A stretch of 64,000 nt of DNA from Burkholderiales bacterium. GTDB taxonomy: Bacteria; Pseudomonadota; Gammaproteobacteria; Burkholderiales; SG8-39. Positions 1 to 21,418 of this stretch are shown here, one piece after another. Position 1 is the stretch's first letter; each line of letters begins with the position of its first letter. The translations under genes were made by a program, and so were the position numbers. The stretch covers positions 34,321-98,320 of the forward strand of contig DATIDG010000084.1 of assembly GCA_035456405.1 (NCBI GenBank), written 5' to 3'. The notes under the pieces were generated by a model that did not search any database, had not been told where the DNA came from, and saw nothing but the letters and a program-made list of their open reading frames with translations.

Positions 1-1190
1 GGCCGGAGGTCGTCGCTCATGATCGCGACCTCGGTGGAAGGGATCGGCAGGCCGATCGTGCCGTTGAACTCGGAATTGAGCGGATTGATGCACGCCGCGG
101 GCGAGGTCTCGGTGAGCCCGTACGCCTCGACGAGGCGTGTGCCGGTGACCTTCTGCCAGCGCTCGGCCACCGCGCGCTGCACCGCGGTGCCGCCCCCGAG
201 CGAGAACTTGACGTGGCTGAAGTCGAGCTTGTCGAAACCCGGCGTGTTGAGCAGCCCGTTGAACAGCGTGTTCACGCCGGTCATCACGGAGAACGGCCGG
301 CGCGCGAGCTCCTTCACGAAGCCCGGCATGTCGCGCGGGTTGGTGATCAGGACGTTCTCGCCGCCCTGCTTCATGAACACGAGGCAGTTCGCGGTGAGGC
401 AGAAGATGTGATAAAGCGGCAGCGCGGTGATCACCACTTCCTCGCCGGCCTTCAGATCGTTGCCGATCCACGCGGCGCACTGCTGCAGGTTCGCGACGAT
501 GTTGCCGTGGGTGAGCATCGCGCCCTTCGCGACGCCCGTAGTGCCGCCGGTGTACTGCAGGAATGCGACATCCTCGTGCGTGAGCGGGACGTCCTTCAGC
601 AGTGCGCCTGTGCCGCGGCGCAGCGCGGCGCGGAACTCGATGGCACCGTCGATGCGCCACGCCGGGACCATCTTCTTCACGTTCTTGACGACGTAGTTGA
701 CGATCCAGCGCTTCGGGACCGGCACCATGTCGCCGATCTGCGTGGTGATGACGGTCTCGACGGCTGTCCTGTCGACGACCTGCTGCAGCGTGTGCGCGAA
801 GTTCTCGACGACGACGATGGCGCGCGCGCCCGAGTCCTTCAGCTGGTGCTCGAGCTCGCGCGCGGTGTAGAGCGGATTGACGTTCACCACCGTCATTCCC
901 GCGCGCAGGACGCCGAACAGCGCGATCGGATACTGGAGCAGGTTCGGCATCATGATCGCGACGCGCTCGCCCTTCGCGAGCTCCGGCATCGACTGCAAAA
1001 ACGCCGCGAAGTCGCGGCTCAGGCGGTCGAGGTCGCGGTAGGTCAGGGTGACGCCGAGATTGGAGTACGCGGCGCGGTCGGCGAAGCGCTGACAACTCTT
1101 CTCGAGGATGTCCCGGACGGAGGAGAACGCCTTGAGGTCGATCTCGGCCGGTATGCCGGGAGGGTAGCTCTTGAGCCAGGGCTTCGCCAT
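1..1190 (-). CDS. fadD: Long-chain-fatty-acid--CoA ligase (3' end runs off the window)
   Basis: The minus-strand frame from the ATG at 1190 reads MAKPWLKSYPPGIPAEID...RVAIMMPNLLQYPIALFG...NPLYTARELEHQL...LQYTGGTTGVAKG (AMP-binding P-loop). It is absent from the ORF track because no stop lies in the window. Confidence 0.93.
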   Translation of the reverse strand, partial: MAKPWLKSYPPGIPAEIDLKAFSSVRDILEKSCQRFADRAAYSNLGVTLTYRDLDRLSRDFAAFLQSMPELAKGERVAIMMPNLLQYPIALFGVLRAGMTVVNVNPLYTARELEHQLKDSGARAIVVVENFAHTLQQVVDRTAVETVITTQIGDMVPVPKRWIVNYVVKNVKKMVPAWRIDGAIEFRAALRRGTGALLKDVPLTHEDVAFLQYTGGTTGVAKGAMLTHGNIVANLQQCAAWIGNDLKAGEEVVITALPLYHIFCLTANCLVFMKQGGENVLITNPRDMPGFVKELARRPFSVMTGVNTLFNGLLNTPGFDKLDFSHVKFSLGGGTAVQRAVAERWQKVTGTRLVEAYGLTETSPAACINPLNSEFNGTIGLPIPSTEVAIMSDDLR

Positions 1191-1285
1191 TAATTGCTCC
1201 CGCTGTTCCGGCCGCAGGCCGGCATCCGCATGGAAGGGGCGAAGCGTAGCCAAGTGGACCGCCGGGTGCAACCGCTGCCCGAGGC

Positions 1286-2029
1286 TCAGGCACCCTCGAC
1301 ATCGAAGGGGCGCGGGTCTCCCGCGAAGAGCCGCGCGTTGATGAGCGATTCGCGCGCGGCAATGACTGCCAGAAACTCGTCGGCGCCGCGCATGCCGCGA
1401 AAGGCCGCAAAGCCGCGCGCGAGGAACTCATGCAGCGCGCCGAGGCCGGCGGCGCGCGCCGGCGCCTCCATGACCCGCAGGGCACCTGCGATCAGGGGCT
1501 TCCGAGCCAGCTTGTCCAGCGCCGCGCCGATGCGTCCGACCAGCCAGATCTGGCGCTCGCGCTCCGCACTTGAGCCGGCGGCCCGGTACGCCTCTGCGTA
1601 CGAACCTTCGCTGAGCTCGAGGGCCCGCGCGCCGGGCTGCCGCCGACGCAGCGCCGCGGCGACGCGCTGGTCGAGCGCCTCCGAGAGCGCGTCCAGCTCC
1701 ACCGCCAGCCCGATCGTCTCGATCGCCGCCGCAGGCAGCAGGCGCGTCAGTGTCGGGATGATTCGGGCGAGCGCTTCGTCGCGCGCGGAGAAGTCCTTGG
1801 GGCCGTACAAGTCGGAGAGGAAGAAGGCCGCCGCATCTCCGTAGCGCGGGCTCGCGAGGAGATCCGGATACGTGCGCGCGAGTCGGTCCGCCTGCCAGGC
1901 GCGCACCAGGAGGCGGTCCTGACCGAGCACAGGGTCGCTGCGTGCGGCATCCCGCAGCTCGCGTACGCGCGCGACTTCGTCGCGCAGCCGCGGCGCGGAG
2001 GGGGCGGACTCGGACGCGGCATCGGCCAT
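1286..2029 (-). CDS. Conserved hypothetical protein (FFLEELY-motif-like)
   Basis: Clean ORF with WQADRLARTYPDLL...AAAFFLSDLYGPKDFSARD...FLARGFAAF; function unknown. Confidence 0.7.
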   Translation of the reverse strand: MADAASESAPSAPRLRDEVARVRELRDAARSDPVLGQDRLLVRAWQADRLARTYPDLLASPRYGDAAAFFLSDLYGPKDFSARDEALARIIPTLTRLLPAAAIETIGLAVELDALSEALDQRVAAALRRRQPGARALELSEGSYAEAYRAAGSSAERERQIWLVGRIGAALDKLARKPLIAGALRVMEAPARAAGLGALHEFLARGFAAFRGMRGADEFLAVIAARESLINARLFAGDPRPFDVEGA

Positions 2030-2081
2030 GCGCACCGATTATAGGGAGGCGCCCTCGGCGCGCGTCCGGCCGCCGTCCGAT

Positions 2082-2115
2082 TAGAGCGAGGGCTCTACGT
2101 GCCGGAGCTAGAATC
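2082..2115 (+). promoter_or_regulatory. Inverted repeat TAGAGC-N4-GCTCTA plus a -10-like TAGAAT upstream of the aldehyde dehydrogenase operon
   Basis: The palindrome at 2082-2097 and TAGAAT at about 2109-2114 lie in the divergent intergenic region. Confidence 0.35.
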
Positions 2116-2142
2116 GATCGCAGTCTCAACGGAGCGTCGTGG

Positions 2143-3579
2143 ATGAACGCGCCCAACTCGCAGCTGCTCCCTCCCGGCATGGCCAGGCTGGACAAGCTAT
2201 TCGCGGCCCAGCGCGCCGCAGTCGCGCGGTCGCCGTACCCGGACGCCGAAACTCGCGAGCGGCGCCTCGCTGCGCTCGAGCGTCTGCTGCGCGAGAACGC
2301 CGAGCCGATCGCCGCGGCGATCGCCCTCGATTTCGGACACCGGTCGGCGCACGAAACGCGCCTCCTCGAGCTCTTCCCGAGCCTGGAAGCAGTGCGCCAC
2401 GCGCGCCGTCGCGTGCGGAAATGGATGAGCCCCAGGCGGCGTGCGACCTCGCTCTGGTTTCGCCCCGGCCGCTCGCAGCTCGTCGTGCAGCCGCTCGGCG
2501 TGGTCGGAATCATCGTCCCCTGGAACTACCCGGTCTACCTCGCGGTCGGTCCGCTCGTCGCGGCGCTGGCGGCGGGCAACCGCGCGCTGGTCAAGATGTC
2601 GGAGCTCGCGCCCGCCACCGCCGAGCTGCTCGACACGCTAGTGCGCAAGAACTTCGACCCGGACGAGGTGTCGATCGTGACGGGTGATGCCGATGTCGGA
2701 CGCGCGTTCGCGGCGTTGCCGTTCGACCATCTGCTCTTCACCGGCTCCACCGGCGTCGGGCGAGCGGTCATGCGGGCGGCCGCCGACAACCTGACTCCGG
2801 TCACGCTCGAGCTGGGCGGGAAGTCGCCGGCGATCGTCGCGCCCGACTATCCGATCGGCGCCGCGGCCGAGCGCATCATGATCGGCAAGCTCATGAACGC
2901 CGGGCAGACCTGCATCGCGCCCGATTACGCGCTCGTCCCGGCGGCGCGCGTGAGCGGGTTCGTGGAGGCCGCGCGGCAGGTCGTTGCGGTCTGCTACCCG
3001 GATCCCCTCCGTTCCCCCGACTACAGCTCGATCATCGATGCGCGCCACTTCGCGCGGCTCAACGGCTACATCGACGAGGCGCGGGCGCAGGGCGCAGAAG
3101 CGGTGACGCTCGGGCCGGCCGGCGCGGCGCCGGACGCCGCGACGCGCCGGATCCCCCCGACGCTGCTCGTCGGCGCGCCCGATTCGTCCCGGGTGATGCG
3201 CGAGGAGATCTTCGGGCCGATCCTGCCGGTCGTCGCGTACGACGACTTCGACGCGGCGCTCGCCTACGTCAATGCGCGCCCGCGGCCGCTTGCGCTCTAT
3301 GTCTTCGATCGCGACGAGGCGCGCATCCGACGGGTGCTGACCGAAACGGTCGCCGGCGGCGTGACGATCAACGACACGATCCTGCACATTGCGCAGGACG
3401 GCCTGCCGTTCGGTGGCGTCGGGCCGAGCGGCATGGGCCAGTACCACGGATACGACGGCTTCCTCGCCTTCTCGAAGCAGAAGGGCGTCTTCCGCCAGGC
3501 GCGCGTGAACGCGATGGCGCTCTTCAAGCCGCCGTACGGCAAGACGTTCGAGCGCCTCGTCGGCTTCCTCCTCCGTTGA
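2143..3579 (+). CDS. Fatty/coniferyl aldehyde dehydrogenase (CalB / P. aeruginosa LaoC-like)
   Basis: ALDH motifs PWNYP, FTGS, TLELGGKSP, NAGQTCIAPDY, EEIFGPILP and LPFGGVGPSGMG. Confidence 0.9.
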   Translation: MNAPNSQLLPPGMARLDKLFAAQRAAVARSPYPDAETRERRLAALERLLRENAEPIAAAIALDFGHRSAHETRLLELFPSLEAVRHARRRVRKWMSPRRRATSLWFRPGRSQLVVQPLGVVGIIVPWNYPVYLAVGPLVAALAAGNRALVKMSELAPATAELLDTLVRKNFDPDEVSIVTGDADVGRAFAALPFDHLLFTGSTGVGRAVMRAAADNLTPVTLELGGKSPAIVAPDYPIGAAAERIMIGKLMNAGQTCIAPDYALVPAARVSGFVEAARQVVAVCYPDPLRSPDYSSIIDARHFARLNGYIDEARAQGAEAVTLGPAGAAPDAATRRIPPTLLVGAPDSSRVMREEIFGPILPVVAYDDFDAALAYVNARPRPLALYVFDRDEARIRRVLTETVAGGVTINDTILHIAQDGLPFGGVGPSGMGQYHGYDGFLAFSKQKGVFRQARVNAMALFKPPYGKTFERLVGFLLR

Positions 3580-4091
3580 TGGTTTCCCGCCGGCAGTTCC
3601 TCAAATTCGGGCTCGCGGGGGGCCTGCTGCTGGCCGCGGCCGGCGCCGCACGCGCGCAGACGGGCTATCGCGCCGCAAGCGGTGCCGACCGATTCGAGGT
3701 GCTGAGCGACGACGATCGCGAGGTGATTGCCGCAGTCGCGCCGGCGATCCTCGCGGGCACCGGGGCGGCGGGGGCGCGACTCGAGGCGATCGTCGGCAGC
3801 GTCGACCGCGCCGTGGCGGGGCTGCCGCCGCACCTGCAGGCCGAGGTGAAGCAGCTCTTGGCGCTGCTCGCATCCTGGCCTGGGCGGCGCCTGCTCGCGG
3901 GCGTGAGCGCGCCGTGGCCGCAGGCCTCGCGCACGGAGGTTGCGGCGTTCCTGGAGCGATGGCGCTTCAGCGGCTGGGCACTGTTCCAGCAGGCGTATCA
4001 CGCGCTGCACGAGCTTGTGCTCGCGGCGTGGTACGCGCGGCCCGACAGCTGGCCGGAAATCGGCTATCCGGGCCCGCCGGTGCTCGGATGA
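3579..4091 (+). CDS. Twin-arginine signal small partner protein (LaoB-like / gluconate dehydrogenase subunit 3-like)
   Basis: N-terminal SRRQFLK Tat motif plus a hydrophobic stretch; C-terminal WPEIGYPGP; overlaps both neighbouring genes. Confidence 0.8.
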   Translation: MVSRRQFLKFGLAGGLLLAAAGAARAQTGYRAASGADRFEVLSDDDREVIAAVAPAILAGTGAAGARLEAIVGSVDRAVAGLPPHLQAEVKQLLALLASWPGRRLLAGVSAPWPQASRTEVAAFLERWRFSGWALFQQAYHALHELVLAAWYARPDSWPEIGYPGPPVLG

Positions 4092-5698
4092 TCCGCGACC
4101 CGATCCGCGCCGGGCTTGCGTCCGGCTGGAAGGTCACTGACGCTTCGGCGCTCGAGCGCGACCTCGTGCTCGATGCGGACGTCGCGATCGTCGGCACCGG
4201 CGCAGGCGGCGGCGTCACCGCGGAGATCCTCGCCGAGGCCGGGCTCGACGTCGTGCTGGTGGAGGAGGGCCCGCTCAAGAGCTCGGCCGACTTCCGCATG
4301 GCCGAGGCCGAGGCATACCCGCAGCTCTACCAGGAGTCGGCGGCGCGCAAGACGCTCGACAAGGCGATCACGATCCTCCAGGGCCGCAACGTGGGCGGCT
4401 CGACGACGGTGAACTGGACGTCGAGCTTCCGCACCCCCGAGGCGACGCTCGAGCACTGGCGGGAGCGCTTCGGCCTCGCCGAGCTCACGACGCCCGCGCT
4501 CGCGCCTTGGTTCGAGCGGATGGAGCGGCGCCTGGCGATTTCGCCATGGTCCGTGCCAGCTAACGAGAACAACGATCTCCTGCGCCGCGGCGGGGAGAAG
4601 CTTGGGATCGCGACCGCCGCGATCCGCCGCAACGTGAGCGGCTGCCTGAATCTCGGCTACTGCGGCATGGGCTGCCCGACCAATGCGAAGCAGTCGATGC
4701 TGGTGACGACGATCCCGGCGGCGCTCGATCGCGGGGCGCGGCTCGTGTGCCTCGCCCGCGCCGAGCGCCTGCGACTGAATCGGGGTCGCGCGGACGCACT
4801 GGAGTGCCGCGCGCTCGATGCGCGTGGCGTGCACGCGACCGAGCGGCGCATCACGGTGCGCGCACGGCACTACGTGGTTGCAGCAGGCGGCATCGGCTCG
4901 CCCGCGCTGCTGCTCCGCAGCGGGGCGCCGGACCCATTCCGCGTGCTCGGATTCCGCACGTTCCTGCATCCGACGGTGATCTCGGCGGCCGTGATGCCGA
5001 ACCCGGTGCACGGCTACGCCGGCGCGCCGCAGACGATCTACTCGGATCACTTCCTCGAGCGCGGTGCGGTCGACGGGCCGATCGGCTTCAAGCTCGAGGC
5101 GGCGCCCCTGCACCCGGTCCTCTTCGGGATGACGCTGCAAGGCTTCGGCGAGGGACACGCCGAGAAGATGAAGACTTTCCCCAACGCGCACGTCCTGATC
5201 GCGCTTCTGCGCGACGGCTTTCACCCCGGCAGCCCCGGCGGCAACGTGGGACTCCGCGGCGACGGCTCGCCGGTGCTCGCCTACGGGCTGACGCCATATG
5301 TCTGGGACGGCGTCCGGCGAGCACTCCTCGCAATGGCCGAGATCCAGTTCGCGGCGGGCGCGCGCGACGTGCTGCCGGTGCACGAGCGCGCCAGGCCGTA
5401 CGCGTCCTGGGCCGAAGCCAAGGCGGGGATCGCGGCGTTGCCGCTCGAGCCACTGCTCACGCGCGTGGTGTCGGCGCACGTGATGGGCGGCTGCGCGATG
5501 GCCGACGTGCCGCAGCGCGGCGTGGTCGACGCGGCTGGACGTCACTTCCAGATCGAAAATCTCTCGGTGCACGACGGCTCGGTCTTCCCGACCAGCCTCG
5601 GGGTCAATCCGCAGCTCACGATCTACGCGCTGACCGCGCGCAATGCCGTCGGGCTGGCTGCGACGCTGACCGGCCGGCTCGCGGGCGCAGGAGCCTGA
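4088..5698 (+). CDS. GMC-family oxidoreductase (long-chain alcohol oxidase/dehydrogenase, LaoA-like)
   Basis: GTGAGGG FAD motif, GGSTTVNW, CxxxGYCGMGCP, SAHVMGGC and DGSVFPTSLGVNPQLTI. Confidence 0.88.
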   Translation: MIRDPIRAGLASGWKVTDASALERDLVLDADVAIVGTGAGGGVTAEILAEAGLDVVLVEEGPLKSSADFRMAEAEAYPQLYQESAARKTLDKAITILQGRNVGGSTTVNWTSSFRTPEATLEHWRERFGLAELTTPALAPWFERMERRLAISPWSVPANENNDLLRRGGEKLGIATAAIRRNVSGCLNLGYCGMGCPTNAKQSMLVTTIPAALDRGARLVCLARAERLRLNRGRADALECRALDARGVHATERRITVRARHYVVAAGGIGSPALLLRSGAPDPFRVLGFRTFLHPTVISAAVMPNPVHGYAGAPQTIYSDHFLERGAVDGPIGFKLEAAPLHPVLFGMTLQGFGEGHAEKMKTFPNAHVLIALLRDGFHPGSPGGNVGLRGDGSPVLAYGLTPYVWDGVRRALLAMAEIQFAAGARDVLPVHERARPYASWAEAKAGIAALPLEPLLTRVVSAHVMGGCAMADVPQRGVVDAAGRHFQIENLSVHDGSVFPTSLGVNPQLTIYALTARNAVGLAATLTGRLAGAGA

Positions 5699-6651
5699 TG
5701 CTCGCGAGTCGGCTGCGCCTGCTGCTCGGTCTCGAGATTGCGGTCTACGCGACGATCGGCGCATGGTTCGTAAGCGCGCGCGGTTGGTCGGGCGGGGAGG
5801 CGATTGCCCTCGCAGTCGCCTGTGCCTTCGTGCTGCGCCTGGTGTTCGGGCTTACGACTTACGCCTTTGCGTGGCGCTGGCGCAGCGCGACGCCCGAGGC
5901 GTTCCGCCTCGGAGTGCCGGCGATGATCGGGCACGTGCTCCGCGAGGTCGGCACGTTGGCCGGACTTTACGCAGTGCTACAGCCGTTCGACCGCTTGTGG
6001 ATGGGCGCGCCCCGGCCGCCCGTCGGATCGGGCGCGCGCCTGCCGGTGCTTCTCGTCCACGGATACGTCTGCAATCGCGCGGTGTGGCGCTCACTCGTGG
6101 AGGCACTGCGCCGGCGTGGCGAATGCGTCGCGGCGCCGAACTTCGAGCCGGTCTACGGCTCCATCGACCTGTGGGTGCCGCAGCTCGCCGCGCGGATCGA
6201 CGAGCTGCTGGCCGCAACCGGGCGGGAGCAGGTGGTGCTCGTCGCGCACAGTCTGGGCGGCCTTGCGGTGCGAGCGTATCTGCGCGTGCACGGCGGCGGC
6301 AAGGTGGCGCGCGTGATCACGTTCGGGACGCCGCACCACGGCAGCATGCATGCGCATCTCGGTGCCGGTCAGAACGCACGCGAGATGGAGCCGGGCTCGC
6401 CCTGGCTCGCGGCGCTCGCGGCCGCGGAGACCGTGGGCGTCGCGGCTCCGCTCCTGGCGATCTATTCCCTCCACGACGACTTCGTCACGCCGCAGTCGAG
6501 CGCCGCGCATCCGCAGGCGCGCAACGTCCCGCTCGCCGGCATCGGACACCTTGCGATGCACTTCTCCCGGACCGTGCGGGACCTCGTTCTGCGCGAGATC
6601 GACGCGGCGAACGTCGTCAGCCAGAGGAGTTCGAGCGCCTGCGCAGCCTGA
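5698..6651 (+). CDS. Membrane-anchored alpha/beta-hydrolase (lipase/esterase)
   Basis: N-terminal hydrophobic helices, PVLLVHG, nucleophile elbow AHSLGG, GTPHHGS, catalytic D (DDFV) and H (GH). Confidence 0.8.
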   Translation: MLASRLRLLLGLEIAVYATIGAWFVSARGWSGGEAIALAVACAFVLRLVFGLTTYAFAWRWRSATPEAFRLGVPAMIGHVLREVGTLAGLYAVLQPFDRLWMGAPRPPVGSGARLPVLLVHGYVCNRAVWRSLVEALRRRGECVAAPNFEPVYGSIDLWVPQLAARIDELLAATGREQVVLVAHSLGGLAVRAYLRVHGGGKVARVITFGTPHHGSMHAHLGAGQNAREMEPGSPWLAALAAAETVGVAAPLLAIYSLHDDFVTPQSSAAHPQARNVPLAGIGHLAMHFSRTVRDLVLREIDAANVVSQRSSSACAA

Positions 6652-6741
6652 CCGGGCGCCTTGCCCCCGGTCAGCCTTGGCCTTTCATTTCGGATGGAGC
6701 CGGTCCTGCATCGCGGGACCGCCGTGAACCCATGCGGAGCA

Positions 6742-8730
6742 TTAGAAGTGTATGCCCCGCATGAGGTTCGACACGGCGATCATGTCCGGCGTCGCCGCCG
6801 GCGTGATCTCGTCCTTCTTGCCCGCAGCCGCCGCCGAGTCGGGGAACATGCGGAAGGTCGTGTTCATGATGACCTGCGCCACCCGCGGCAGCAGCGCGTG
6901 TAGCACCTCCCCGAAGACGCCGAGCCGGGTGGCGATCCGGACCGGCCTGTAGACGATCCCCTCGACCACCAAGTCGGCCGCCTCTTCCGGCGTGAGCGTC
7001 GGGACCTGGTTGTAGATCTTGGTCGGCGCGATCATCGGCGTCTTCACGAGCGGCATGTTGATGGTCGTGAACTGGATCCCCATGTCGGCGAACTCGGAGG
7101 CGGCGCAGCGCGTCCATGCGTCGAGGGCGGCTTTGGAGGCGACGTACGCCGAGAAGCGCGGCGCGTTCGTCAGCACCCCGATCGACGAGATGTTGATCAC
7201 GTGCCCGCGGCGCTTCTTGACCATCATCGGCAGCAGGCCGAGCGTGAGCCGCAGCGCGCCGTAGTAGTTGACCGACATGGTGCGCTCGAAGTCGTGGTAG
7301 CGGTCGAACGAGTTCTCGATCGCGCGCCGGATCGAGCGGCCGGCGTTGTTCACGAGGATGTCGACGCCGCCATGATTGTCCTCGAGTTTGCGCACCAGCT
7401 CCTCGCACTGGCCGGGGTCGGAGACGTCGACCGAGTAGGTAACGACCGAGTGGCCCCTGGCCGTGATGTCCTTCTTGGCCGCGGCGAGCTTCTCCGGGTC
7501 GCGCGCGATGATGAGCGTGGTGGCGCCGGCGGCGGCGACCTTGTGCGCGGTCGCGAGCCCGATCCCGGAGGATCCGCCGGTGATGAGCACCACCTTCCCC
7601 TTCACCGTGCCCTTGAGGGTGCGGTCGATCCTCAGATCCGGGTCGAGGTGGCGCTCCCAGTAGTCCCACAGGCGCCACGCATAGGTCTCCAGCGCGGGGA
7701 CCTCGATACCGGACCCCTTCAGCGCGGCGGTCGCCTCGCGGCAGTCGAACCGCGTCGGGTAGTTGACGAACGTCAGGATGTCCTCGGGCAGTCCGAGATC
7801 CTTCATGACCGCCTTCTGGATCCGCCTGACCGGCGTGAGCGCCATCAGTCCCTTCTTGATGCCCTTCGGGATGAAGCCGAAGAGCGCGGCGTTCACGTAG
7901 AGCGACATGGCCGGCGCGTGCCCGGCCTTCGCGAACGTGTTCAGGACCTCGCCGACGCGCCGCGGGGACGGGTCGACCAGGTGGAAGCACTTGCCGTCGA
8001 GGCCCTTCTTGTGCGCGATGTGATCCATCGCGGCGACCACGAAGTCGACCGGGACGATGTTGATCCGCCCGCCCTCCAGGCCGATGGTCGGCATCCACGG
8101 CGGCAGCAGCTGGCGCGTGCGCTGGATGAGCTTGAAGAAGTAGTACGGGCCGTCGATCTTGTCCATCTCGCCGGTGCGCGAATCTCCGACCACGATGCCG
8201 GGGCGATACACGCGCCAGGGCACCTGGCAATCCTGGCGCACCAGCTTCTCGGACTCGTGCTTGGTCGAGAAATAGGGATGGTCGAGCCCCTCCGCCTCCT
8301 CGAACATGTCCTCGCGGAACACGCCTTCGTACAGGCCGGCGGCGGCGATCGAGCTCACGTGGTGGAAGCAGCCGGCGCCGATCTCGTTCGCGAAGAGGAC
8401 GGTGTTCTTGGTGCCCTCGATGTTGGCGATGCGCTGCGACTCCTCGTCGGCGCTGAGGTCGTACACCGCAGCAAGGTGGAAGAAATGCTTGATCTTGCCC
8501 TCGAGCTTCTTCCTTTCGGCGGACGTGATCCCCAGCCCAGGCAGGGCGAGATCGCCCCGTACCGCGATCGCGCGGGTTTCGTCGACGCCCCAGTAGTCGA
8601 GGAGATCGGCGATGCGCTTGGCCGACCGGTCGCGCACCAGGAAGTGGACGGTCGTGCCCTTGCGCTCGAGGATCTTGCGGACGAGCCGCTTGCCGATGAA
8701 GCCGGTCGCACCGGTGACGAAGTAATGCAT
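6742..8730 (-). CDS. Two-domain fatty acyl-CoA reductase (extended SDR plus classical SDR; Maqu_2507-like)
   Basis: True start is MHYFVTGATGFIG (RBS-like GGAGG upstream). A second Rossmann TGGSSGIG is followed by NNAGRSIRR and YVASK; about 662 aa. Confidence 0.88.
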   Translation of the reverse strand: MHYFVTGATGFIGKRLVRKILERKGTTVHFLVRDRSAKRIADLLDYWGVDETRAIAVRGDLALPGLGITSAERKKLEGKIKHFFHLAAVYDLSADEESQRIANIEGTKNTVLFANEIGAGCFHHVSSIAAAGLYEGVFREDMFEEAEGLDHPYFSTKHESEKLVRQDCQVPWRVYRPGIVVGDSRTGEMDKIDGPYYFFKLIQRTRQLLPPWMPTIGLEGGRINIVPVDFVVAAMDHIAHKKGLDGKCFHLVDPSPRRVGEVLNTFAKAGHAPAMSLYVNAALFGFIPKGIKKGLMALTPVRRIQKAVMKDLGLPEDILTFVNYPTRFDCREATAALKGSGIEVPALETYAWRLWDYWERHLDPDLRIDRTLKGTVKGKVVLITGGSSGIGLATAHKVAAAGATTLIIARDPEKLAAAKKDITARGHSVVTYSVDVSDPGQCEELVRKLEDNHGGVDILVNNAGRSIRRAIENSFDRYHDFERTMSVNYYGALRLTLGLLPMMVKKRRGHVINISSIGVLTNAPRFSAYVASKAALDAWTRCAASEFADMGIQFTTINMPLVKTPMIAPTKIYNQVPTLTPEEAADLVVEGIVYRPVRIATRLGVFGEVLHALLPRVAQVIMNTTFRMFPDSAAAAGKKDEITPAATPDMIAVSNLMRGIHF

Positions 8731-8861
8731 GCTCGATCCTCCTTGTACGGCCAGGCCTCGCGGGTGCGCGGTGGGTGCGCGGGGGGTGGGGCGGCGGATT
8801 ATAGATCCTGCGAAATCGGCCGGCACCGCCGGCGGGCGCCGCCCGGATTTTAGGGTGTCGG

Positions 8862-8884
8862 TTCTAGTCCGAGGACCTAGAATG
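8862..8884. promoter_or_regulatory. Inverted repeat TTCTAG-N9-CTAGAA overlapping a TAGAAT -10; candidate TetR/PhaD operator in the FAR/phasin divergent promoter
   Basis: TTCTAGTCCGAGGACCTAGAAT is seen directly; the operator role is inferred. Confidence 0.4.
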
Positions 8885-8962
8885 CCCCTTGAGCGTCGGC
8901 AGCAAAGACCGGCGGAATGAGGCCCGCGTCGGCTCGCCGGCCTTCGAGAACTGGAGACAGAC

Positions 8963-9415
8963 ATGGTGAAGAAGCTCAAGAGACTCGCGGAAGGCGCGTC
9001 GGACAACCAGCTTGCGGCGACGGTGCGGGATTCAGCGCAGCAGATCTGGCTCGCCGGGCTGGGTGCGTTCGGGAAGGCGCAGGCGGAGGGCGCGAAGGTC
9101 TTCGATGCCCTGGTCAAGGAAGGCAAGAACCTCGAGGGTCGGACCCGCAAGTTCGCCCAGATGCGAATGGGGTCGGTTACCGGGACGGTCGAGAAGGCGG
9201 CCACGAAAGCGACGGCTCGCGCGACCGCGACGTGGGACAAGCTCGAGCAGGTGTTCGAAGACCGCGTCGCGCGGGCGCTGCACAAGCTTGGCGTCCCGAC
9301 GAACCGCGACATCCAGAACCTCTCGAAGCGCGTCGAGGAACTGACCGCGAGCGTTCGCAAGCTCGATTCGGGGCGCACCAAGGCCGCTCGCGCGAAGCGC
9401 GCGGTGAGAAAGTAA
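8963..9415 (+). CDS. Phasin / PHA granule-associated protein (PhaF/PhaI family)
   Basis: SAQQIWLAGLGAF...GAKVFDALVKEG...WDKLEQVFEDRVARALHKLGVP is the typical PhaF/PhaI core; short basic tail. Confidence 0.9.
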   Translation: MVKKLKRLAEGASDNQLAATVRDSAQQIWLAGLGAFGKAQAEGAKVFDALVKEGKNLEGRTRKFAQMRMGSVTGTVEKAATKATARATATWDKLEQVFEDRVARALHKLGVPTNRDIQNLSKRVEELTASVRKLDSGRTKAARAKRAVRK

Positions 9416-9444
9416 TCGCCGCCGCGATCCTTGCACTCGACGGG

Positions 9445-10677
9445 ATGACCCCGCCCGAGGTGAAAAAGCGCAGCGCCAAGACCGGTCTCGCCCTCGCCGG
9501 CGGCGGTCCGTTGGGCGGCATCTACGAGGTCGGTGCGCTCGCCGCGCTCGCCGACAGCCTCGACGGGCTCGACTTCAACGACCTCGACGTCTACGTCGGC
9601 GTCAGCTCCGGCAGCTTCATCGCCGCCGGCCTCGCGAACGGCATCGCGCCGGTCGAGATGTGCCGAATGTTCATCGAGAGCGAGTCGCATCGCGAGCCGT
9701 TCGCGCCGCACTTGCTGCTGCGACCGGCATTCCGGGAGTTCGCGCGGCGCGCGGCGTTGCTCCCGCCGCTCCTCGCCGGCTCCGTCTGGCGCTTCCTCAC
9801 CCAGCCCGGGGCGCATGCGTTCATGGAATCCTTCGCGCAGGTCGGGCGGGCGATACCGACCGGGCTGTTCGACAACGACGCGATCCACCGCTTCCTGCAG
9901 CGCCTGTTTGCGGTGCCCGGCCGGACGAACGATTTCCGCCAGCTGCCGCGCAAGCTCTTTCTCATCGCCACCGACCTCGATTCCGGCGTGCCGGTCGCGT
10001 TCGGTGCCGAGGGCCACGACCACGTGCCGATCTCGCGCGCGGTCGAGGCGAGCTCCGCGCTGCCGGGCCTGTTCCCGCCGGTCGAGATCGACGGGCGCTT
10101 CTACGTCGACGGCGCGCTCAAGCGCACGCTGCACGCGTCGGTTGCCCTGGAGCACGGCGCGAAGCTCCTGCTGTGCATCAACCCGCTGGTGCCCTACGAC
10201 AGCCGCATTCCGATTGCCGACGGGCGTGCCCCGCGGCGGCTCGTCGACGGCGGCCTGCCGGTGGTGCTCGCCCAGACGCTGCGCGCGATGGTGTATTCCC
10301 GGATGCAGGTCGGGATGCAACGCTACAAGCGCGAGTTCCGGGATGCAGACGTCGTCCTGTTCGAGCCGAACAAGCACGATGCCGAGATGTTTTTCACCAA
10401 CATGTTCAGCTACGCGAGCCGGCGGCGGCTGGCGGAGCATGCCTACCAGAAGACACGCAAGGAGCTGTTCGCTCGGCGCCACGTGCTCGCGCCCATCCTC
10501 GCGCGCCACGGCGTCGGCATCCGCGTCGACGTGCTGACCGATCCGGACCGGCATCTCGTGCGCGGCATGCGGCGGCGGCGCCTGCTGATCGCGGCCACTG
10601 AGGCGACCGCGCGCCTGGCCGAGTCGCTCGACGACCTCGAGCGCTGGCTGGCGAGCTACGCCCCGGCGCCCGGCTGA
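9445..10677 (+). CDS. Patatin-like phospholipase / acyl hydrolase
   Basis: Gly-rich LAGGGPLGG, nucleophile GVSSG, ASSALPGLFPP and DGA motifs. Confidence 0.88.
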   Translation: MTPPEVKKRSAKTGLALAGGGPLGGIYEVGALAALADSLDGLDFNDLDVYVGVSSGSFIAAGLANGIAPVEMCRMFIESESHREPFAPHLLLRPAFREFARRAALLPPLLAGSVWRFLTQPGAHAFMESFAQVGRAIPTGLFDNDAIHRFLQRLFAVPGRTNDFRQLPRKLFLIATDLDSGVPVAFGAEGHDHVPISRAVEASSALPGLFPPVEIDGRFYVDGALKRTLHASVALEHGAKLLLCINPLVPYDSRIPIADGRAPRRLVDGGLPVVLAQTLRAMVYSRMQVGMQRYKREFRDADVVLFEPNKHDAEMFFTNMFSYASRRRLAEHAYQKTRKELFARRHVLAPILARHGVGIRVDVLTDPDRHLVRGMRRRRLLIAATEATARLAESLDDLERWLASYAPAPG

Positions 10678-10726
10678 CCGGCCGGGGCGGCGTGCTATCC
10701 TTCGCGCCCCGCCCGAGCCCGCCCGA

Positions 10727-11374
10727 ATGGAGCGCAAGCCGAAGCGCCGCACGCGCGAGCGCATCCTCGAGACGAGCCTGAAGCTCTTCAACGACTTCGG
10801 CGAGCCGAACGTCACCACGACGGTCATCGCCGACGAGCTCGACATCAGCCCGGGCAACCTCTACTACCACTTCCGCAGCAAGGACGAGATCGTCAACACG
10901 ATCTTCGGAACGTTCGAGCGCGAGATCGACGGCGTGCTTGCCGCCCCTGCGGCGCGGCAGGCGAACGTGGAGGACATGTGGCTCTTCCTGCACGTGCTGT
11001 TCGAGGCGATATGGAAGTACCGCTTCCTGTATCGCGACCTGAACGACCTGCTGTCGCGCAACCGCCTGCTGGAGGTCCACTTCAAGCGCCTGCTCGAGCA
11101 GAAGGTCCGCACCGCCACCGCGCTGTGCGAGGGGCTCGCGGCGGGCGGCGAGCTGCGCGCCCGGCGGGGCGAGATCGCCGCCCTCGCGACCAACATGGTG
11201 GTCGTCTCGACCTACTGGCCGTCGTACGAGTACGTGCGCAATCCGCGCAACCTCCAGGAAGGCGAGATGATCGCGCGCGGCGCGTACCAGGTGATGTCGC
11301 TCGTGGCGCCGTTTCTCGCCGACCGCTCGAGGGCGCTGTTCGAGCGGCTGGCGGAGGCATACGTATCGACCTGA
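10727..11374 (+). CDS. TetR/AcrR-family regulator (PhaD-like)
   Basis: TRERILETSLKLFN...EPNVTT..IADELDISPGNLYYHFRSK, with a PhaD-like C-terminus (YRFLYRDLNDLL). Confidence 0.88.
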   Translation: MERKPKRRTRERILETSLKLFNDFGEPNVTTTVIADELDISPGNLYYHFRSKDEIVNTIFGTFEREIDGVLAAPAARQANVEDMWLFLHVLFEAIWKYRFLYRDLNDLLSRNRLLEVHFKRLLEQKVRTATALCEGLAAGGELRARRGEIAALATNMVVVSTYWPSYEYVRNPRNLQEGEMIARGAYQVMSLVAPFLADRSRALFERLAEAYVST

Positions 11375-11399
11375 ACGCCCGGACGGCGAGGAGAGGCAG

Positions 11400-12182
11400 A
11401 TGGCGAAGACGAGCTGGACGAAGTTCCCGCACCCCGAAAAGGCGTACGTGTACGAGGGCGCGAGCCTGAAGAAGCATTGGGACCGCCTGCACAAGGGCGA
11501 CTGCGAGCCGTTCCCGAAGGAGGAGGCGGTCCAGGAGGCGTGGCGCGCCTACCATCAGGGCGACTTCGGACGGGCGATCGAAGAGGGACTGGCCGCGGGC
11601 CCGGCGGGATCGAACGTCGCCAACAAGGCCCAGGCGATCTACGCCACGTACCTCGAGAAGGCGGGAGCGAGGAAGGCGAAGCTTTTCCACGAGGCGATGG
11701 AGCGGGGCGAAGAGGCGATGAGCGCGCATCCTCGCGATGCCAACGCGCATTACTTCTACGCGATGGCCGCCGGGCGCTACGGGCAGGAGATCTCGATCGC
11801 CAAGGCCCTCGCGCAGGGCCTCGGCGGGAAGATCAGGGAGGCCCTGGACAAGGCCGTGAAGCTGCAGCCCAAGCATGCCGACGCGCACATCGCCCTCGGG
11901 ACCTGGCACGCCGAGATCATCGGCAAGGTCGGCGGAATGGTCGGGAAGCTCACCTACGGGGCGAGCAAGGACGCCGCCGTCGAGCACTTCCAGAAGGCGC
12001 TCAAGCTAAATCCGGAGTCGGCGATCGCGCGGATCGAGTACGCGAACGGACTCGTCCTGCTCTTCGGCAAGGACAGGATGAAGGACGCCGAGAAGCTCTA
12101 CGCCGAGGCGGCGAAGCAGAAACCGATGGACGCGATGGAGCGCCTCGACGTCGAGGCGGCGAAAGCCGAGCTGGAGGACTGA
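11400..12182 (+). CDS. TPR-like helical repeat protein (RMDN-like), function unknown
   Basis: Helical repeats HPRDANAHYFYAMAAGRY...ALDKAVKLQPKHADAHIALGTW...FQKALKLNP. Confidence 0.7.
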   Translation: MAKTSWTKFPHPEKAYVYEGASLKKHWDRLHKGDCEPFPKEEAVQEAWRAYHQGDFGRAIEEGLAAGPAGSNVANKAQAIYATYLEKAGARKAKLFHEAMERGEEAMSAHPRDANAHYFYAMAAGRYGQEISIAKALAQGLGGKIREALDKAVKLQPKHADAHIALGTWHAEIIGKVGGMVGKLTYGASKDAAVEHFQKALKLNPESAIARIEYANGLVLLFGKDRMKDAEKLYAEAAKQKPMDAMERLDVEAAKAELED

Positions 12183-12189
12183 GGCGGCG

Positions 12190-13722
12190 TCAGGCGCCGG
12201 ACGCTGCGGCGACCGGCGCCGCCGGTCGTGCCTTACGCGGCTTGCGGGTCGCCAGCTTGCGGCGCTTGAGCACCGCCCGCAGCTCGCGCTCTACGAGCGC
12301 CGGGTCGCGCTTCACGTCCCACGGCTCCATCAGGATCGTCATCAGCAGTCGGTCGAACTCCGGCCGGAAATGCGCGATGATGTTCTCCGGGTCCGGCACA
12401 CGCGCCGCGTCGGTGATCAGTCCGAACTGCACGCCGCCGTTGTAGGAGAGGATCGAGACGCCCATGCCGATGTCGCCCGACTGCGGCACCCAGAACATGA
12501 TCTGCTTGAGGCGGGCGCCGGCCATGTAGAGCTGCTCCTGCGGCCCGGGCACGTTCGTCATCACTGCGGTCGCCTTGTTCGCGAGCAGGTCGAGCACCTG
12601 CTGCTGCACCACGTTCGGCGCGATCCCCGCGGCGCCGAGGAGCGCGAACGCAACCACCGCCTGGTACGACCCCTTCAGCGCCTCCATCCGGTGATGCACC
12701 TCGTAGAGACGCGCAAGCGGATTGGCGACGCCGACGGGGAGGAGGAGGGTGACCAGCCCAAACCTGTTGCCGAGGCTGATCTCCGACTCGTTCGCGCGCA
12801 GGTTCACCGGCACCAGCGCCCGCAGCTCGACGCCCTCGGTGGGGTCGCCCTTGTCCACGAGGTAGCGCCGCAGCGCGCCGGCGACGGTGGCGAGCAGGAC
12901 ATCGTTCACCGAGCAGTCGAGCACCTTGCCGACCGCCTTCACCTCGTCGAGCGGGACCGGCTCGGTCCATGCGACGCGTTTCTCCGGTCCCGCCTTGCCC
13001 TTGTATCGGGTGCGCGAGTCGTCCGGCATCGTGGCGAGCTGTGCGATTTCGCCGGCGACGCTCGCCGCGATCCGCGCGTACTGCACCACCTTCTCCGGGT
13101 TGAGCAGGGCCTCGAGGCCCTTTTCCGCAACCTCCCCGGAGACGCGCAGCGCCTGGGCGGCCATGCCGGTGAACGGCTCAAGGAACTGGCCGAGCAACCC
13201 GCCGTCTTCCTGGCGCGCGGCGCGTGCGCGGACCGCCGACCGCCCGCGCGCGACGGGGGCGTTGGGCGAGCCGTCGGTGAGGGAGAGCATCACCCGGATC
13301 AGGGCGATGCCGTCCGCATAGCTGTGGTGGATCCGCGAGACGATCGCCGACCCGCCGTCGTAGCCGTCGACGAGCGTGAAATCCCACCACGGGCGGCGCG
13401 GGTCGAAGGGCCGCGCAACGAGCTTCGCGACGAAGCGCTTCAGGGCCTCCGGGCCGCCCTTGCCCGGAACGCGCGCCCGACGCACGTGCTTCGCCAGATC
13501 GAAGCGCGGGGTCTCTTCCCACCACGCCCCGGTCACATCCTCGACCGGCCGGCAGCGGAACCGGTCGAAGCGCGCGAAGCGCGCCTCGAAGGTGGCCTTC
13601 AGCCGCTCGTAGTCGACAGGCTGGTCGAACAGGAGCACGCCGACGATCACCATTCGGTTCGTCGGCCGGTCCATGCGCAGCCAGGCGGTGTCCACGCTCG
13701 ACATTCGGCTGCGGTTCGGCAT
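12190..13722 (-). CDS. Wax ester synthase / diacylglycerol acyltransferase (WS/DGAT)
   Basis: MSSVDTAWLRMD start, catalytic HHSYADG, VNDVLLA, LVPVNLR, TNVPGP and SILSYNG. Confidence 0.93.
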   Translation of the reverse strand: MPNRSRMSSVDTAWLRMDRPTNRMVIVGVLLFDQPVDYERLKATFEARFARFDRFRCRPVEDVTGAWWEETPRFDLAKHVRRARVPGKGGPEALKRFVAKLVARPFDPRRPWWDFTLVDGYDGGSAIVSRIHHSYADGIALIRVMLSLTDGSPNAPVARGRSAVRARAARQEDGGLLGQFLEPFTGMAAQALRVSGEVAEKGLEALLNPEKVVQYARIAASVAGEIAQLATMPDDSRTRYKGKAGPEKRVAWTEPVPLDEVKAVGKVLDCSVNDVLLATVAGALRRYLVDKGDPTEGVELRALVPVNLRANESEISLGNRFGLVTLLLPVGVANPLARLYEVHHRMEALKGSYQAVVAFALLGAAGIAPNVVQQQVLDLLANKATAVMTNVPGPQEQLYMAGARLKQIMFWVPQSGDIGMGVSILSYNGGVQFGLITDAARVPDPENIIAHFRPEFDRLLMTILMEPWDVKRDPALVERELRAVLKRRKLATRKPRKARPAAPVAAASGA

Positions 13723-13814
13723 TGTTCGCGATGAGGCGGCGCGGGGCGGGCGGGTCCCTATAATAGCCGAGCGTGCGGGGCCGCCGCCTCGCAGGAATCG
13801 GCAAGGAGGCCATT

Positions 13815-14072
13815 GTGAGCGACCTGAAGAACAAGTTCGCGGACGCCGCGGCCGCGGTGAAGAAGCTCAAGGACGACCCGGGCAACGACGTGAAGCTGCA
13901 GCTCTACGCGCTCTACAAGCAGGGTGCCGAGGGCGACGTGCAGGGCAAGCGGCCCGGCTTCACTGACATGATCGGGCGCGCAAAGTACGACGCCTGGGCC
14001 AAGACGAAGGGGATGTCGCAGGACGAGGCAATGAAGAAGTACATCGACCTCGTCAAGTCGCTCGGAGGCTAG
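13815..14072 (+). CDS. Acyl-CoA-binding protein (ACBP)
   Basis: LQLYALYKQGAEGDV...RPGFTDMIGRAKYDAW...GMSQDEAMKKY; GTG start with an AGGAGG RBS; TATAAT near 13759. Confidence 0.93.
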   Translation: MSDLKNKFADAAAAVKKLKDDPGNDVKLQLYALYKQGAEGDVQGKRPGFTDMIGRAKYDAWAKTKGMSQDEAMKKYIDLVKSLGG

Positions 14073-14081
14073 CGCGGACCC

Positions 14082-14414
14082 TCAGGTCCGCCTCTTCGCG
14101 GGAGCGGCTTTCTTCGCTGCGGGCTTCTTCGCGGCTGGCGCCGCGAAGTACTTGTCGAACTGCTCGTCGATCTCCCGCTCGATGCGGGGCTTGAGGAACG
14201 CGAGCAGGAAGCTGAGCCGCGCCTCGAGGCGCACGTCGTGGTCGGTCACGTGCAGCTCGCCGTGCACGCCGGTGCGCTCGAAGTGCAGCACGTGACGCTT
14301 CCACGCGTACTCGAGGTCGAAGTCCTTCCTCAGCCGCGCGGCGACCTTCTCGGCGGCCGTCCGCGCCTCGTCGAGCGGCAGCGAGTGGATGCGGCGCACC
14401 TTGATGTCGCTCAT
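14082..14414 (-). CDS. Polyhydroxyalkanoic acid system family protein (PHA_gran_rgn) with an Ala/Lys/Pro tail
   Basis: MSDIKVRRIHSLPLDEAR...LEYAW...LHFERTGVHGEL...LSFLLAFLKPRIEREI; tail AAPAAKKPAAKKAAPAKRR. Confidence 0.85.
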   Translation of the reverse strand: MSDIKVRRIHSLPLDEARTAAEKVAARLRKDFDLEYAWKRHVLHFERTGVHGELHVTDHDVRLEARLSFLLAFLKPRIEREIDEQFDKYFAAPAAKKPAAKKAAPAKRRT

Positions 14415-14559
14415 TGCGGCGTCTCCCGGGACGGCAGCGCCGCGCAGGCGCCGAGGCGACGGATTCTAGATGGAGCGCCGCGCCTCCGCCACACGGCCGA
14501 CTGGCAGGGCGCGGCGGCCGGTGTAAGATTCTTGGGCGTGTCTGCCGTTGGGGGTGGCC

Positions 14560-17190: not shown

Positions 17191-17723
17191 GGCCGGATGC
17201 CGGGCCGCGCGAGCAGCGCCTCGAAGCGCCGCCGGGCGTCCGCGAGGTGCGGGTTGATCCGCAGCGCCGCGTCGAAAGCGAACAGCGCGGCGTCCTCGCG
17301 CCCGTTCGCGAGGCACAGCTCCGCGAACGCGAGCATCGCCCCGTAGTGTCGCGGCTCGAGAACGAGCGTACGGTGGAAGTCGTGCACGCTCTCCTCGTCG
17401 CGTCCCTGCATGTAGAAGAGCGTGGCCCGCTTGTGCCAGGCTTCGGCGAACCCGGGATGGAGGGACACGAGCCGCCGCAGGATTGCCTCGGCCGTCGGGT
17501 AGTCCTCCGCGACGATGGCGCGCGTCGCCCGCTCGAGCTCCGCCGCCGCGCGGCGGTCCGGGTAGCGCATCCAGAACGCCCAGATCTCGTCCTCCGTGCG
17601 GCTCGCGAGCGGCGCGGCGAGGTCGGCGAGCCGGCGCAGCAGCGCGTCGAGGGCGCGATGCAGGCGCGGCGACGGGCGCCGCTTTGGGCCGATCCCGATC
17701 AGCTTGAGCGTCTCGGCGTACAT
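17184..17723 (-). CDS. Tetratricopeptide repeat protein (paralog 2)
   Basis: EDEIWAFW...[15 protein letters not shown]...LEPRHYGAM...AALRINPHL. Confidence 0.8.
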
Positions 17724-17751
17724 GCGCGGAAGTTTAGCGCCGGCCCCGGCG

Positions 17752-21300: not shown

Positions 21301-21418
21301 TCGCAAGCGCCGCATAGCCGAGGGCGTGCGCCCGTTCGGCCAGCTCCTCGGGGTGCGAGGCGCCCCGCAGGAAGCTGAAGTTGGTGAGGCAGTGCAGCTC
21401 GGCGTAAGCAGGCAGCAT
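18320..21418 (-). CDS. dnaE2: Error-prone DNA polymerase DnaE2 (ImuC)
   Basis: [47 protein letters not shown] and the C-terminal SRDFH signature. Confidence 0.97.
20538..20560 (-). repeat. Short degenerate GGGAAAC-type heptamer tract, in frame inside dnaE2
   Basis: The minus strand reads GGGAAAC GGAAAGG GGGGAGC, encoding RETERGEQ. Confidence 0.4.

Follow-up and report, generated by a model that had tools for sequence, protein, structure and literature searches.

We analyzed a 64,000-nucleotide stretch of DNA from a Burkholderiales bacterium, here called the window (contig C84:34321-98320 of source genome G000, which is 4.85 Mb in size and 97.7% complete). The block under study occupies window positions 1 to 14414 and combines candidate genes for making and breaking down wax esters with three genes related to those of Pseudomonas polyhydroxyalkanoate (PHA) clusters, which encode a phasin, a PhaD-like TetR regulator, and a PHA_gran_rgn protein. 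A sequence-only reading had described the block as a closed make-store-burn cycle in which PHA granule proteins had been co-opted for lipid droplets. All the genes named in that reading were present, their families matched, and their catalytic motifs were intact. Two further genes inside the block, for an FFLEELY-motif protein and a TPR protein, had been missed. The features are as follows.

1..1190, minus strand: FadD, long-chain acyl-CoA ligase, 5' part (PF00501; FadD models as best NCBIfam matches; adenylation motifs)
1286..2029, minus strand: FFLEELY-motif (DUF8198) protein (NF047641, 230 bits; PF26621 in the Atlas)
2080-2099, plus strand: predicted PhaD-type operator before the aldehyde dehydrogenase-laoB-laoA-lipase genes (ATTAGA-8-TCTACG; 22.0 bits), with a -10-like hexamer at 2109-2114
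2143..3579, plus strand: aldehyde dehydrogenase, LaoC-like (PF00171; ELGGK and GQTC motifs)
3579..4091, plus strand: LaoB-like partner subunit with a twin-arginine motif (no Pfam match; assigned by likeness to lao-type clusters)
4088..5698, plus strand: GMC flavoprotein, LaoA-like long-chain alcohol dehydrogenase (PF00732 and PF05199)
5698..6651, plus strand: alpha/beta hydrolase, candidate wax ester lipase (PF00561; AHSLG; two N-terminal hydrophobic segments)
6742..8730, minus strand: two-domain fatty acyl-CoA reductase of the AcrB/Maqu_2507 type, 662 amino acids (PRK07201; PF07993 and PF00106)
8849-8868, plus strand: predicted PhaD-type operator in the reductase-phasin spacer (TTTAGG-8-TCTAGT; 26.2 bits), with a -10-like hexamer at 8878-8883
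8963..9415, plus strand: phasin, 150 amino acids (PF05597, 157 bits; TIGR01837 above cutoff)
9445..10677, plus strand: patatin-like acyl hydrolase (PF01734; GGGxxG, GVSSG, and DGA motifs)
10727..11374, plus strand: PhaD-like TetR regulator (PF13972 and PF00440)
11400..12182, plus strand: TPR protein of the RMD1-3 family (PF21033 above cutoff)
12190..13722, minus strand: wax ester synthase/diacylglycerol acyltransferase (WS/DGAT) with a basic C-terminal tail (TIGR02946, 409 bits; cutoff, 310)
13815..14072, plus strand: acyl-CoA-binding protein (ACBP; PF00887)
14082..14414, minus strand: PHA_gran_rgn protein with a Lys/Ala/Pro-rich tail (PF09650; TIGR02610 above cutoff)

Judged by gene spacing, the FFLEELY gene is followed by fadD in a minus-strand unit; the window edge cuts fadD, the complete open reading frame of which is C84:33810-35510. 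The aldehyde dehydrogenase, laoB, laoA, and lipase genes form one unit in which stop codons overlap the following starts. The phasin, patatin, tetR, and TPR genes form another, with gaps of 25 to 49 bp, and the reductase gene is divergent from it. The WS/DGAT gene is divergent from the ACBP gene, and the PHA_gran_rgn gene is a unit of its own.

FadD yields acyl-CoA, an AcrB-type reductase yields fatty alcohol, and WS/DGAT condenses acyl-CoA and alcohol to an ester. Esters are hydrolyzed by patatin and alpha/beta hydrolases, and the alcohol is turned into acid by a LaoAB-type enzyme with an aldehyde dehydrogenase. The window reductase, of the two-domain type with an extended-SDR and a classical-SDR part, scored 1000 bits against PRK07201 (cutoff, 549) over profile positions 5 to 657 of 657, with both NAD(P) Rossmann motifs and the YxxxK motif intact, and the HHSYADG motif at residue 132 of the WS/DGAT protein aligned with that of the Marinobacter enzyme (6chj). 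PRK07201 is the profile used for AcrB (PMC11948995; here and below, statements on cited papers refer to the accessible parts of their text). The claimed potential for wax ester synthesis therefore held up, both enzymes scoring above their cutoffs with intact motifs, and their sequences indicate that together they likely make wax esters.

To follow the block through related bacteria, we retrieved loci by phasin alignment and used the best 80 of 589 confirmed GTDB loci. This set, picked on phasin similarity alone and thus biased to close relatives, is mostly from Burkholderiales with some Alphaproteobacteria, and 40 of the 80 loci end early at contig borders. Gene presence, counted by tblastn with coverage thresholds, was highest for patatin (66), the reductase (65), TetR (58), and TPR (56), followed by the lipase (35), WS/DGAT (26), FFLEELY (25), GMC (22), LaoB (19), ACBP (16), PHA_gran_rgn and the aldehyde dehydrogenase (15 each), FadD (13), and PhaC (1). 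With truncated copies included, the reductase faced the phasin within 3 kb in 70 of the 80 loci. The conserved core is therefore the reductase divergent from phasin-patatin-TetR-TPR, and the full set of the window is at the richer end of the range. Because the block gene order was kept in the genus genomes that could be read and the core in most of the 80 loci, the gene set is far beyond chance. The cluster is real and widespread. The expected synteny of phasin, patatin, and TetR with wax ester genes was confirmed for the reductase, but WS/DGAT lay in the locus in only the 26 cases counted above. A genome-wide search that covered 58 phasin genomes, 48 from the 80 loci and 10 from elsewhere, found WS/DGAT in 53. 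Within the 80 loci, the phasin goes with the reductase and not with phaC.

Spacers of 80 to 500 bp between the reductase and phasin genes were available from 68 of 79 loci, or 69 with that of the window. The dyad words TCTA-N11 and CTAG-N9 stood out in these spacers. A 35-bp matrix scored above 10 bits in 50 of the 69, compared with 1 of 1380 shuffles, and the exact pattern TAG-N10-CTA occurred in 67 of the 69, compared with 133 of 3450 shuffles. The element is a palindrome with a -10-like hexamer some 10 bp further on. We trained the final matrix on the phasin spacers of other genomes, leaving the window site out. Above 9 bits, the full motif matched the 4.85-Mb source genome only three times: at window positions 8849 and 2080 and at C75:75863, where it precedes the second PF05597 phasin of the genome. 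This second, divergent phasin is encoded by a lone gene (C75:75846-76364) preceded by two PhaD-type palindromes in tandem (15.1 and 15.0 bits). The 18-bp palindrome alone gave 23 matches in the genome, and four of the top five were at those three promoters. A further palindrome-only match (C91:14457, minus strand; 15.1 bits) lies between ABC transporter-like and TetR-like genes and has no -10-like box at the usual spacing. A scan for sigma-70 consensus promoters returned none.

The regions 200 nt upstream of genes with at least 60% coverage were then scanned in 92 related loci for palindromes above 9 bits. The palindrome preceded the phasin in 74 of 82 cases, which are largely the training set, and the aldehyde dehydrogenase in 10 of 17 cases, which lie outside it; where laoB heads the operon, the full motif was found in 5 of 8 cases. 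No palindrome was found upstream of WS/DGAT (0/29), ACBP (0/21), PHA_gran_rgn (0/19), FadD (0/16), or the phaC3 gene described below (0/4). Within the source genome, the palindrome was likewise missing at the three phaC genes, two phaP genes, phaR, phaB, and both WS/DGAT genes. The second of these, a homolog 31% identical to the first, lies at C55:10193-11638, distant from the cluster.

The TetR protein of the window is 40 to 42% identical over its full length to PhaD in two phaC1-Z-C2-D clusters, and the helix-turn-helix stretch ISPGNLYYHF is identical between them. PhaD operators at the phaI and phaC1 promoters are inverted 6-bp half sites 8 bp apart, and PhaD is an activator for which a beta-oxidation CoA intermediate has been proposed as an uncertain effector (PMC7590123; PMC9049629 agrees). 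We found this 6-8-6 element at the phaI and phaC1 promoters of two classic pha clusters (4/4 promoters, one with a TGG half site). The window sites match the published PhaD operator in geometry (6-8-6), the comparison being one of geometry and not of base sequence. We infer that the window TetR binds both palindromes and, because the palindrome lies where a -35 box would be, that it activates as PhaD does. What is new here is the occurrence of a PhaD-geometry palindrome before the phasin operon, the aldehyde dehydrogenase-lao-lipase operon, and the second phasin, that is, at candidate coat and mobilization genes and not at phaC. A literature search, with most subscription journals outside its reach, found no report of a PhaD operator at wax ester or lao genes and none naming such a phasin as a wax droplet coat.

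The sequence-only reading had leaned on the lack of PHA genes. Profile searches indeed found no phaC or phaZ inside the window, but this literally true statement is misleading and reflects the window edge: a PhaC homolog of 588 amino acids, with a GYCLGG lipase box and an intact cysteine box, is encoded at C84:30156-31922, its nearer end 2,398 bp outside the window on the left and one gene past fadD. We refer to this gene as phaC3; its product scored 530 bits against the class I cutoff of 623 and 333 bits against the class II cutoff of 855. The whole-genome search gave three PhaC_N matches, the other two being a class I synthase on C107, inside a phaC-phaB-phaB-phaP-phaR locus, and a second class I synthase on C94. 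An intracellular polyhydroxybutyrate depolymerase is encoded on C32, and TIGR02240 had no match above cutoff anywhere in the source genome. The genome handles polyhydroxybutyrate through a circuit apart from the block (phaC-phaB-phaP-phaR on C107). The lack of phaC thus fails as an argument and, with its premise wrong, the idea must rest on other evidence; its conclusion is partly right for other reasons.

phaC3 was considered as a member of the module, which is unlikely: it belongs to an Hsp20-Lon-PolX block, is itself missing in some loci, and had the operator in 0 of 4 cases. It lies beside the cluster in G001, G002, and G005 but not at the loci examined in G003, G019, and G028; the contig of G004 is too short to show its neighborhood. 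On the left of the window, the block reads Hsp20-Lon-PolX-orf-phaC3-MBL-fold gene (C84:24587-33453). Within the genus, phaC3 and the MBL-fold gene come and go, and Hsp20-Lon stay by the cluster in G001 to G003, G005, and G019. The phaC locus on C107 (L005:7501-12395) has two tandem phaB-like reductase genes, with no thiolase seen between phaC and phaR, and the PhaC frame on C94 is unusually long, at up to 820 to 848 amino acids.

At the genome level, we studied a family sample of 151 genomes, each at least 95% complete and centered on genome G163. The phasin was found in 107 genomes, the full reductase in 74 (the search scored seven candidates per genome), WS/DGAT in 85, and class I PhaC in 141. 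The phasin was present in 83 of the 85 WS/DGAT genomes and 73 of the 74 reductase genomes, and class I PhaC was present in 41 of the 44 genomes without the phasin. In this sample, PHA producers do without the window-type phasin, but wax producers almost never do. We read all 34 phasin loci without a full reductase match, and none had a reductase beside the phasin. The phasin in such loci often faces an rmlB-like nucleotide-sugar gene (L114, L117, L118, L120, L122, L123, L127, and L129), which would fit clean reductase loss. The absence of PhaC was tried as a discriminator and dropped, as all 7 phasin genomes below the strict cutoff had PhaC_N on recheck. A class-wide sample was too small for co-occurrence (phasin in 9 of 300 genomes; one order had 8 genomes).

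Neither wax enzyme was found in 24 of the 107 phasin genomes. In these loci, TetR was kept in 17, TPR in 8, ACBP in 7, and patatin in none; among nine loci from genomes that still have WS/DGAT, six had patatin. The median phasin score was 147 bits without wax enzymes versus 163 bits. We counted the operator here by exact TAG-N10-CTA matches because the matrix scores poorly in this family, even at reductase-linked loci. The dyad occurred in 8 of the 24 loci without wax enzymes, in 7 of the 9 loci whose genomes have WS/DGAT, and in all 10 reductase-linked loci used for comparison, counts that come from windows of unequal length. The exact operator-plus-box pattern had no matches in five complete genomes without wax enzymes, a search in which the controls gave just 0 to 2. 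The 24 loci look as though they decayed once the wax enzymes were lost, and a persisting PHA role would fit as well.

A sample from a second order (161 genomes centered on G047) includes carriers of the classic Pseudomonas-type pha cluster. With phasins called by a PF05597 match at an E value of ≤1e-15, 39 genomes had a phasin, 15 of them with a strong class I or II PhaC_N match; a partial match in G651 (365 amino acids, just above cutoff) was left uncounted. Class III PhaC above cutoff was found in none of the remaining 24 phasin genomes and in two control genomes. Among the 39, eight had PhaC only, 20 had WS/DGAT only, seven had both, and four had neither. WS/DGAT was thus present in 20 of the 24 phasin genomes without a recognized PhaC, compared with 40 of 122 phasin-less genomes, so that phasins of this family do occur with WS/DGAT and without a recognized PhaC. 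Two genomes of this sample that have the full reductase do not carry it beside the phasin. G659 and G622, with no recognized PhaC and a single-domain reductase homolog only, kept patatin-phasin and TPR ... FFLEELY-PHA_gran_rgn. G301, from another order and likewise without a recognized PhaC, kept TetR, two phasins, the reductase, PHA_gran_rgn, and FFLEELY; its class III-like homolog has a cysteine in the lipase box. Class III PhaC-like proteins of about 380 amino acids that score below cutoff are common in wax ester genomes (e.g., C13:47085-48008 and L150 to L153), and the four that we read have GW(S/C)(M/L)GG boxes.

The phasin of the window has amphipathic helices and a short basic tail with 11 Lys or Arg among its last 30 residues. 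It is 32 to 36% identical to PhaF and PhaI of classic pha clusters, and the PHA_gran_rgn protein is 35 to 41% identical to the product of the gene beside phaI. In a quick phasin tree (96 of 158 domains, 148 columns), the window protein grouped within a clade of 59 rows separate from PhaF/PhaI (SH-aLRT, 97), and the deep nodes were left open. Co-option from PHA is therefore only one possible direction. A search of sequencing runs returned five runs, none with half of the query words.

The structure model of the TPR protein (pLDDT, 96.7) had as top Foldseek matches the TPR domain of PTPIP51/RMDN3 (7cc7) and a bacterial sterol transporter (7t1s), with TM scores of 0.61 to 0.62 over the whole chain at ranks 1 to 3; the TPAT transporter 8g52 ranked 13th. 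Across these lipid-binding matches, E values were 1e-6 to 2e-4, identity was 17 to 20%, and root mean square deviations were 5 to 7 Å. The overall TPR fold is common to these lipid-binding proteins and the window protein, which belongs to the PF21033 family. Generic TPR proteins score only about tenfold weaker than lipid-binding ones, and whether PTPIP51 transfers lipid at all is a matter of debate (PMC10243591). The TPR protein as a lipid carrier is thus a lead, based on the model. The FFLEELY protein was modeled as all-helical (pLDDT, 90.7), and its fold search gave no clear counterpart (best match, Z 5.8).

A twin-arginine motif is the mark of Tat export signals. The N terminus of LaoB carries an RRxFL-type motif in 22 of 25 homologs, compared with 0 of 26 GMC proteins, and the LaoAB pair may work outside the cytoplasm. 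In the window, the aldehyde dehydrogenase, partner subunit, and GMC genes stand in the same operon order as in LaoABCR. Compared with the lao-type clusters of two Pseudomonas-type genomes, the GMC protein is 57 to 58% (G683 and G608), LaoB 34 to 39%, and the aldehyde dehydrogenase 56 to 59% identical. The same order, with 51 to 59% GMC and aldehyde dehydrogenase identity, was found in three of the four comparison loci that reach the aldehyde dehydrogenase. Unlike LaoABCR, the window has no LaoR beside laoC. The FFLEELY gene takes that place, with the PhaD-type element in the spacer, and the operon includes a lipase gene.

The reading that we favor, with moderate confidence, is that the block makes wax esters and that a PhaD-like switch turns on the droplet coat and the breakdown enzymes. 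FadD and ACBP would supply acyl-CoA, which the reductase would convert to fatty alcohol and WS/DGAT to wax ester. Rising acyl-CoA would be the signal on which the PhaD-like protein activates the coat and mobilization operons. The phasin, the likely coat of wax droplets, would cover the droplet together with PHA_gran_rgn. The basic tails of both may tie the droplet to DNA, as PhaF does (PMC5658603). The patatin would act as the droplet lipase, perhaps with the membrane lipase, and release acid and alcohol; LaoAB and the aldehyde dehydrogenase would oxidize the alcohol in a step that may lie outside the cytoplasm. The TPR protein would carry lipid. The reductase and FFLEELY genes run the other way from the two operator spacers and might be counter-regulated. 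Because the alcohol-oxidizing step may be extracytoplasmic, the block would be a co-regulated make, coat, and mobilize module more than a closed cycle. The make-store-burn picture of the sequence-only reading is further reduced by the presence of WS/DGAT in only 26 of the 80 loci and of Lao genes in only 19 to 22.

Several findings weigh against the reading that we favor. Besides the scarcity of WS/DGAT and Lao genes in the loci and the twin-arginine motif of LaoB, which tell against a closed cycle, the genome has three PhaC, only 1.9 kb separates phaC3 from fadD, and phaC3 adjoins the cluster in three of the four other genus genomes with a readable flank. No operator precedes WS/DGAT, ACBP, PHA_gran_rgn, or FadD, which leaves synthesis without a visible tie to the regulator. 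Within the family sample, phaC was present in all 107 phasin genomes, and 24 of these keep the phasin, and most of them TetR, without either wax enzyme. In the second order, 17 of the 24 "PhaC-less" genomes carry class III-like homologs below cutoff, which are possible unrecognized synthases, and 40 of 67 WS/DGAT genomes had no PF05597 match at the threshold used. Finally, related genomes are not independent, and we claim no P value for the co-occurrence counts.

Part of this evidence would suit a PHA service, in which the phasin, PhaD-like regulator, and PHA_gran_rgn protein serve the granules of the three PhaC and cluster with wax genes via a shared acyl-CoA response. The adjacent phaC3 and the universal phaC of the family phasin genomes speak for it, as does the fact that the only characterized members, PhaF, PhaI, and PhaD, serve PHA (PMC5658603 and PMC7590123). 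We nevertheless consider it unlikely: no operator stands at any phaC, phaP, phaR, or phaB of the source genome, which possesses a separate PhaP/PhaR circuit; a phaC accompanies the phasin in 1 of 80 loci; G659, G622, and G301 retain the module without a recognized PhaC; and patatin and the operator decay with the loss of the wax enzymes. The phasin might instead be a general coat for PHA granules, wax droplets, or mixed bodies, with the regulator adding coat and lipase when fatty acids are abundant. PhaP1 binds triacylglycerol (TAG) inclusions and a Rhodococcus phasin has been recovered from lipid inclusions, according to a review, and the phasin family of the second order occurs with PhaC, with WS/DGAT, with both, or with neither, in the proportions given above. 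We consider such a general role improbable: the window clade is separate from PhaF/PhaI, and the lower phasin scores without wax enzymes suggest selection mostly through the wax link.

A different view of the operator genes is that they use external wax esters and long-chain alcohols, by way of a Tat-exported LaoAB and the membrane lipase, and that the reductase and WS/DGAT buffer acyl-CoA and NADPH with no storage organelle. The distribution of the twin-arginine motif fits export of LaoA and LaoB as a pair, LaoABC has been described for alcohols from sodium dodecyl sulfate and alkanes (PMC7318663), and the Lao arm is the least conserved part. Set against this, the best-kept part is the core of reductase, phasin, patatin, TetR, and TPR (56 to 70 of 80 loci), the core proteins that were checked have no hydrophobic segment, and a granule coat protein tied to a reductase is left unexplained. 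We regard this view as very unlikely. More broadly, PhaD-phasin-PHA_gran_rgn may be a general proteobacterial control module for neutral lipid droplets, of which the Pseudomonas pha cluster is a special case with phaC1 wired to the operator; one activator and operator would drive the coat, patatin, the RMDN3-related TPR protein, and alcohol oxidation. We put this forward tentatively, as an idea that could well prove wrong. Animal fat droplets have a perilipin-plus-patatin-lipase design, and the proposed module would be its bacterial counterpart.

The enzymes of the block are of the same families as those of the Marinobacter and Acinetobacter wax pathway (AcrB, equivalent to Maqu_2507, and WS/DGAT; PDB 6chj and 7nxg), with motifs intact. 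In the window, they stand in one block with the phasin, patatin, PhaD-like, TPR, ACBP, and Lao genes. The Pseudomonas pha cluster (phaC1-phaZ-phaC2-phaD and phaI-phaF) shares homologous PhaD, phasin, and PHA_gran_rgn proteins and the 6-8-6 geometry with the block. In contrast to that cluster, the block has no synthase or depolymerase, one phasin in place of tandem PhaI/PhaF, and no long AKP-rich DNA-binding PhaF tail, and its operator stands at the phasin-patatin and aldehyde dehydrogenase-lao-lipase operons instead of phaC1. Part of the synteny is in print: betaproteobacterial metagenome scaffolds have ACBP beside ws/dgat, a MAQU_2507-like reductase, a PHA-system protein, and a phasin (PMC10351704; PLoS One 2023). 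That paper reads the phasin as PHA metabolism; "patatin" and "PhaD" are absent from its main text, the accessible part of which describes no operator or droplet coat role, and its synteny figure may show more of the block.

The known coat proteins of bacterial neutral lipids are actinobacterial (PMC6176652), and, according to a 2016 review, specific abundant proteins seem to be lacking from TAG inclusions; the review also describes binding of such inclusions in heterologous hosts by a phasin from a different family (PMC6273058). The likeness of the window proteins to the actinobacterial TadA, MLDS, and HBHA is one of working only, by description, as small proteins on neutral lipid inclusions; HBHA has a lysine-rich tail, MLDS binds DNA, and HBHA relatives occur only in actinobacteria (PMC6176652). 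The block names a candidate coat, lipase, lipid carrier, and switch of Gram-negative wax ester droplets, and its two 20-bp sites are directly testable. An annotation of "phasin" or "PHA system protein" should not be taken as a sign of PHA, because 24 of the 39 phasin genomes of the second order have no recognized PhaC. The surprise is limited, as the enzymes are well known.

Phasins also occur in other surroundings. In two class III PhaC genomes without WS/DGAT (L023 and L027; G243 and G054), the phasin gene lies beside an Mrr-like restriction-domain gene, and the locus in G243, 25 kb from phaC, also has PHA_gran_rgn and an FHA protein. The gene for the PF05597 phasin of Acinetobacter baumannii (L113:7065-8814) is flanked by the isc operon region and the HU gene; this locus has no adjoining wax ester genes and no operator-like site, and an alkane hydroxylase-like desaturase-family gene and acyl-CoA dehydrogenase genes lie 3 to 7 kb off. 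Beyond the block in the window, two short similar tandem genes (17184-18294 and 18320-21418), with no Pfam match at an E value of ≤1e-15, lie downstream of an error-prone DnaE2-like polymerase gene. Next to the block, a CfaB-like cyclopropane fatty acid synthase gene (14548-15819) is divergent from the PHA_gran_rgn gene and adjoins the cluster in only 4 of the 80 loci, all of them from close relatives.

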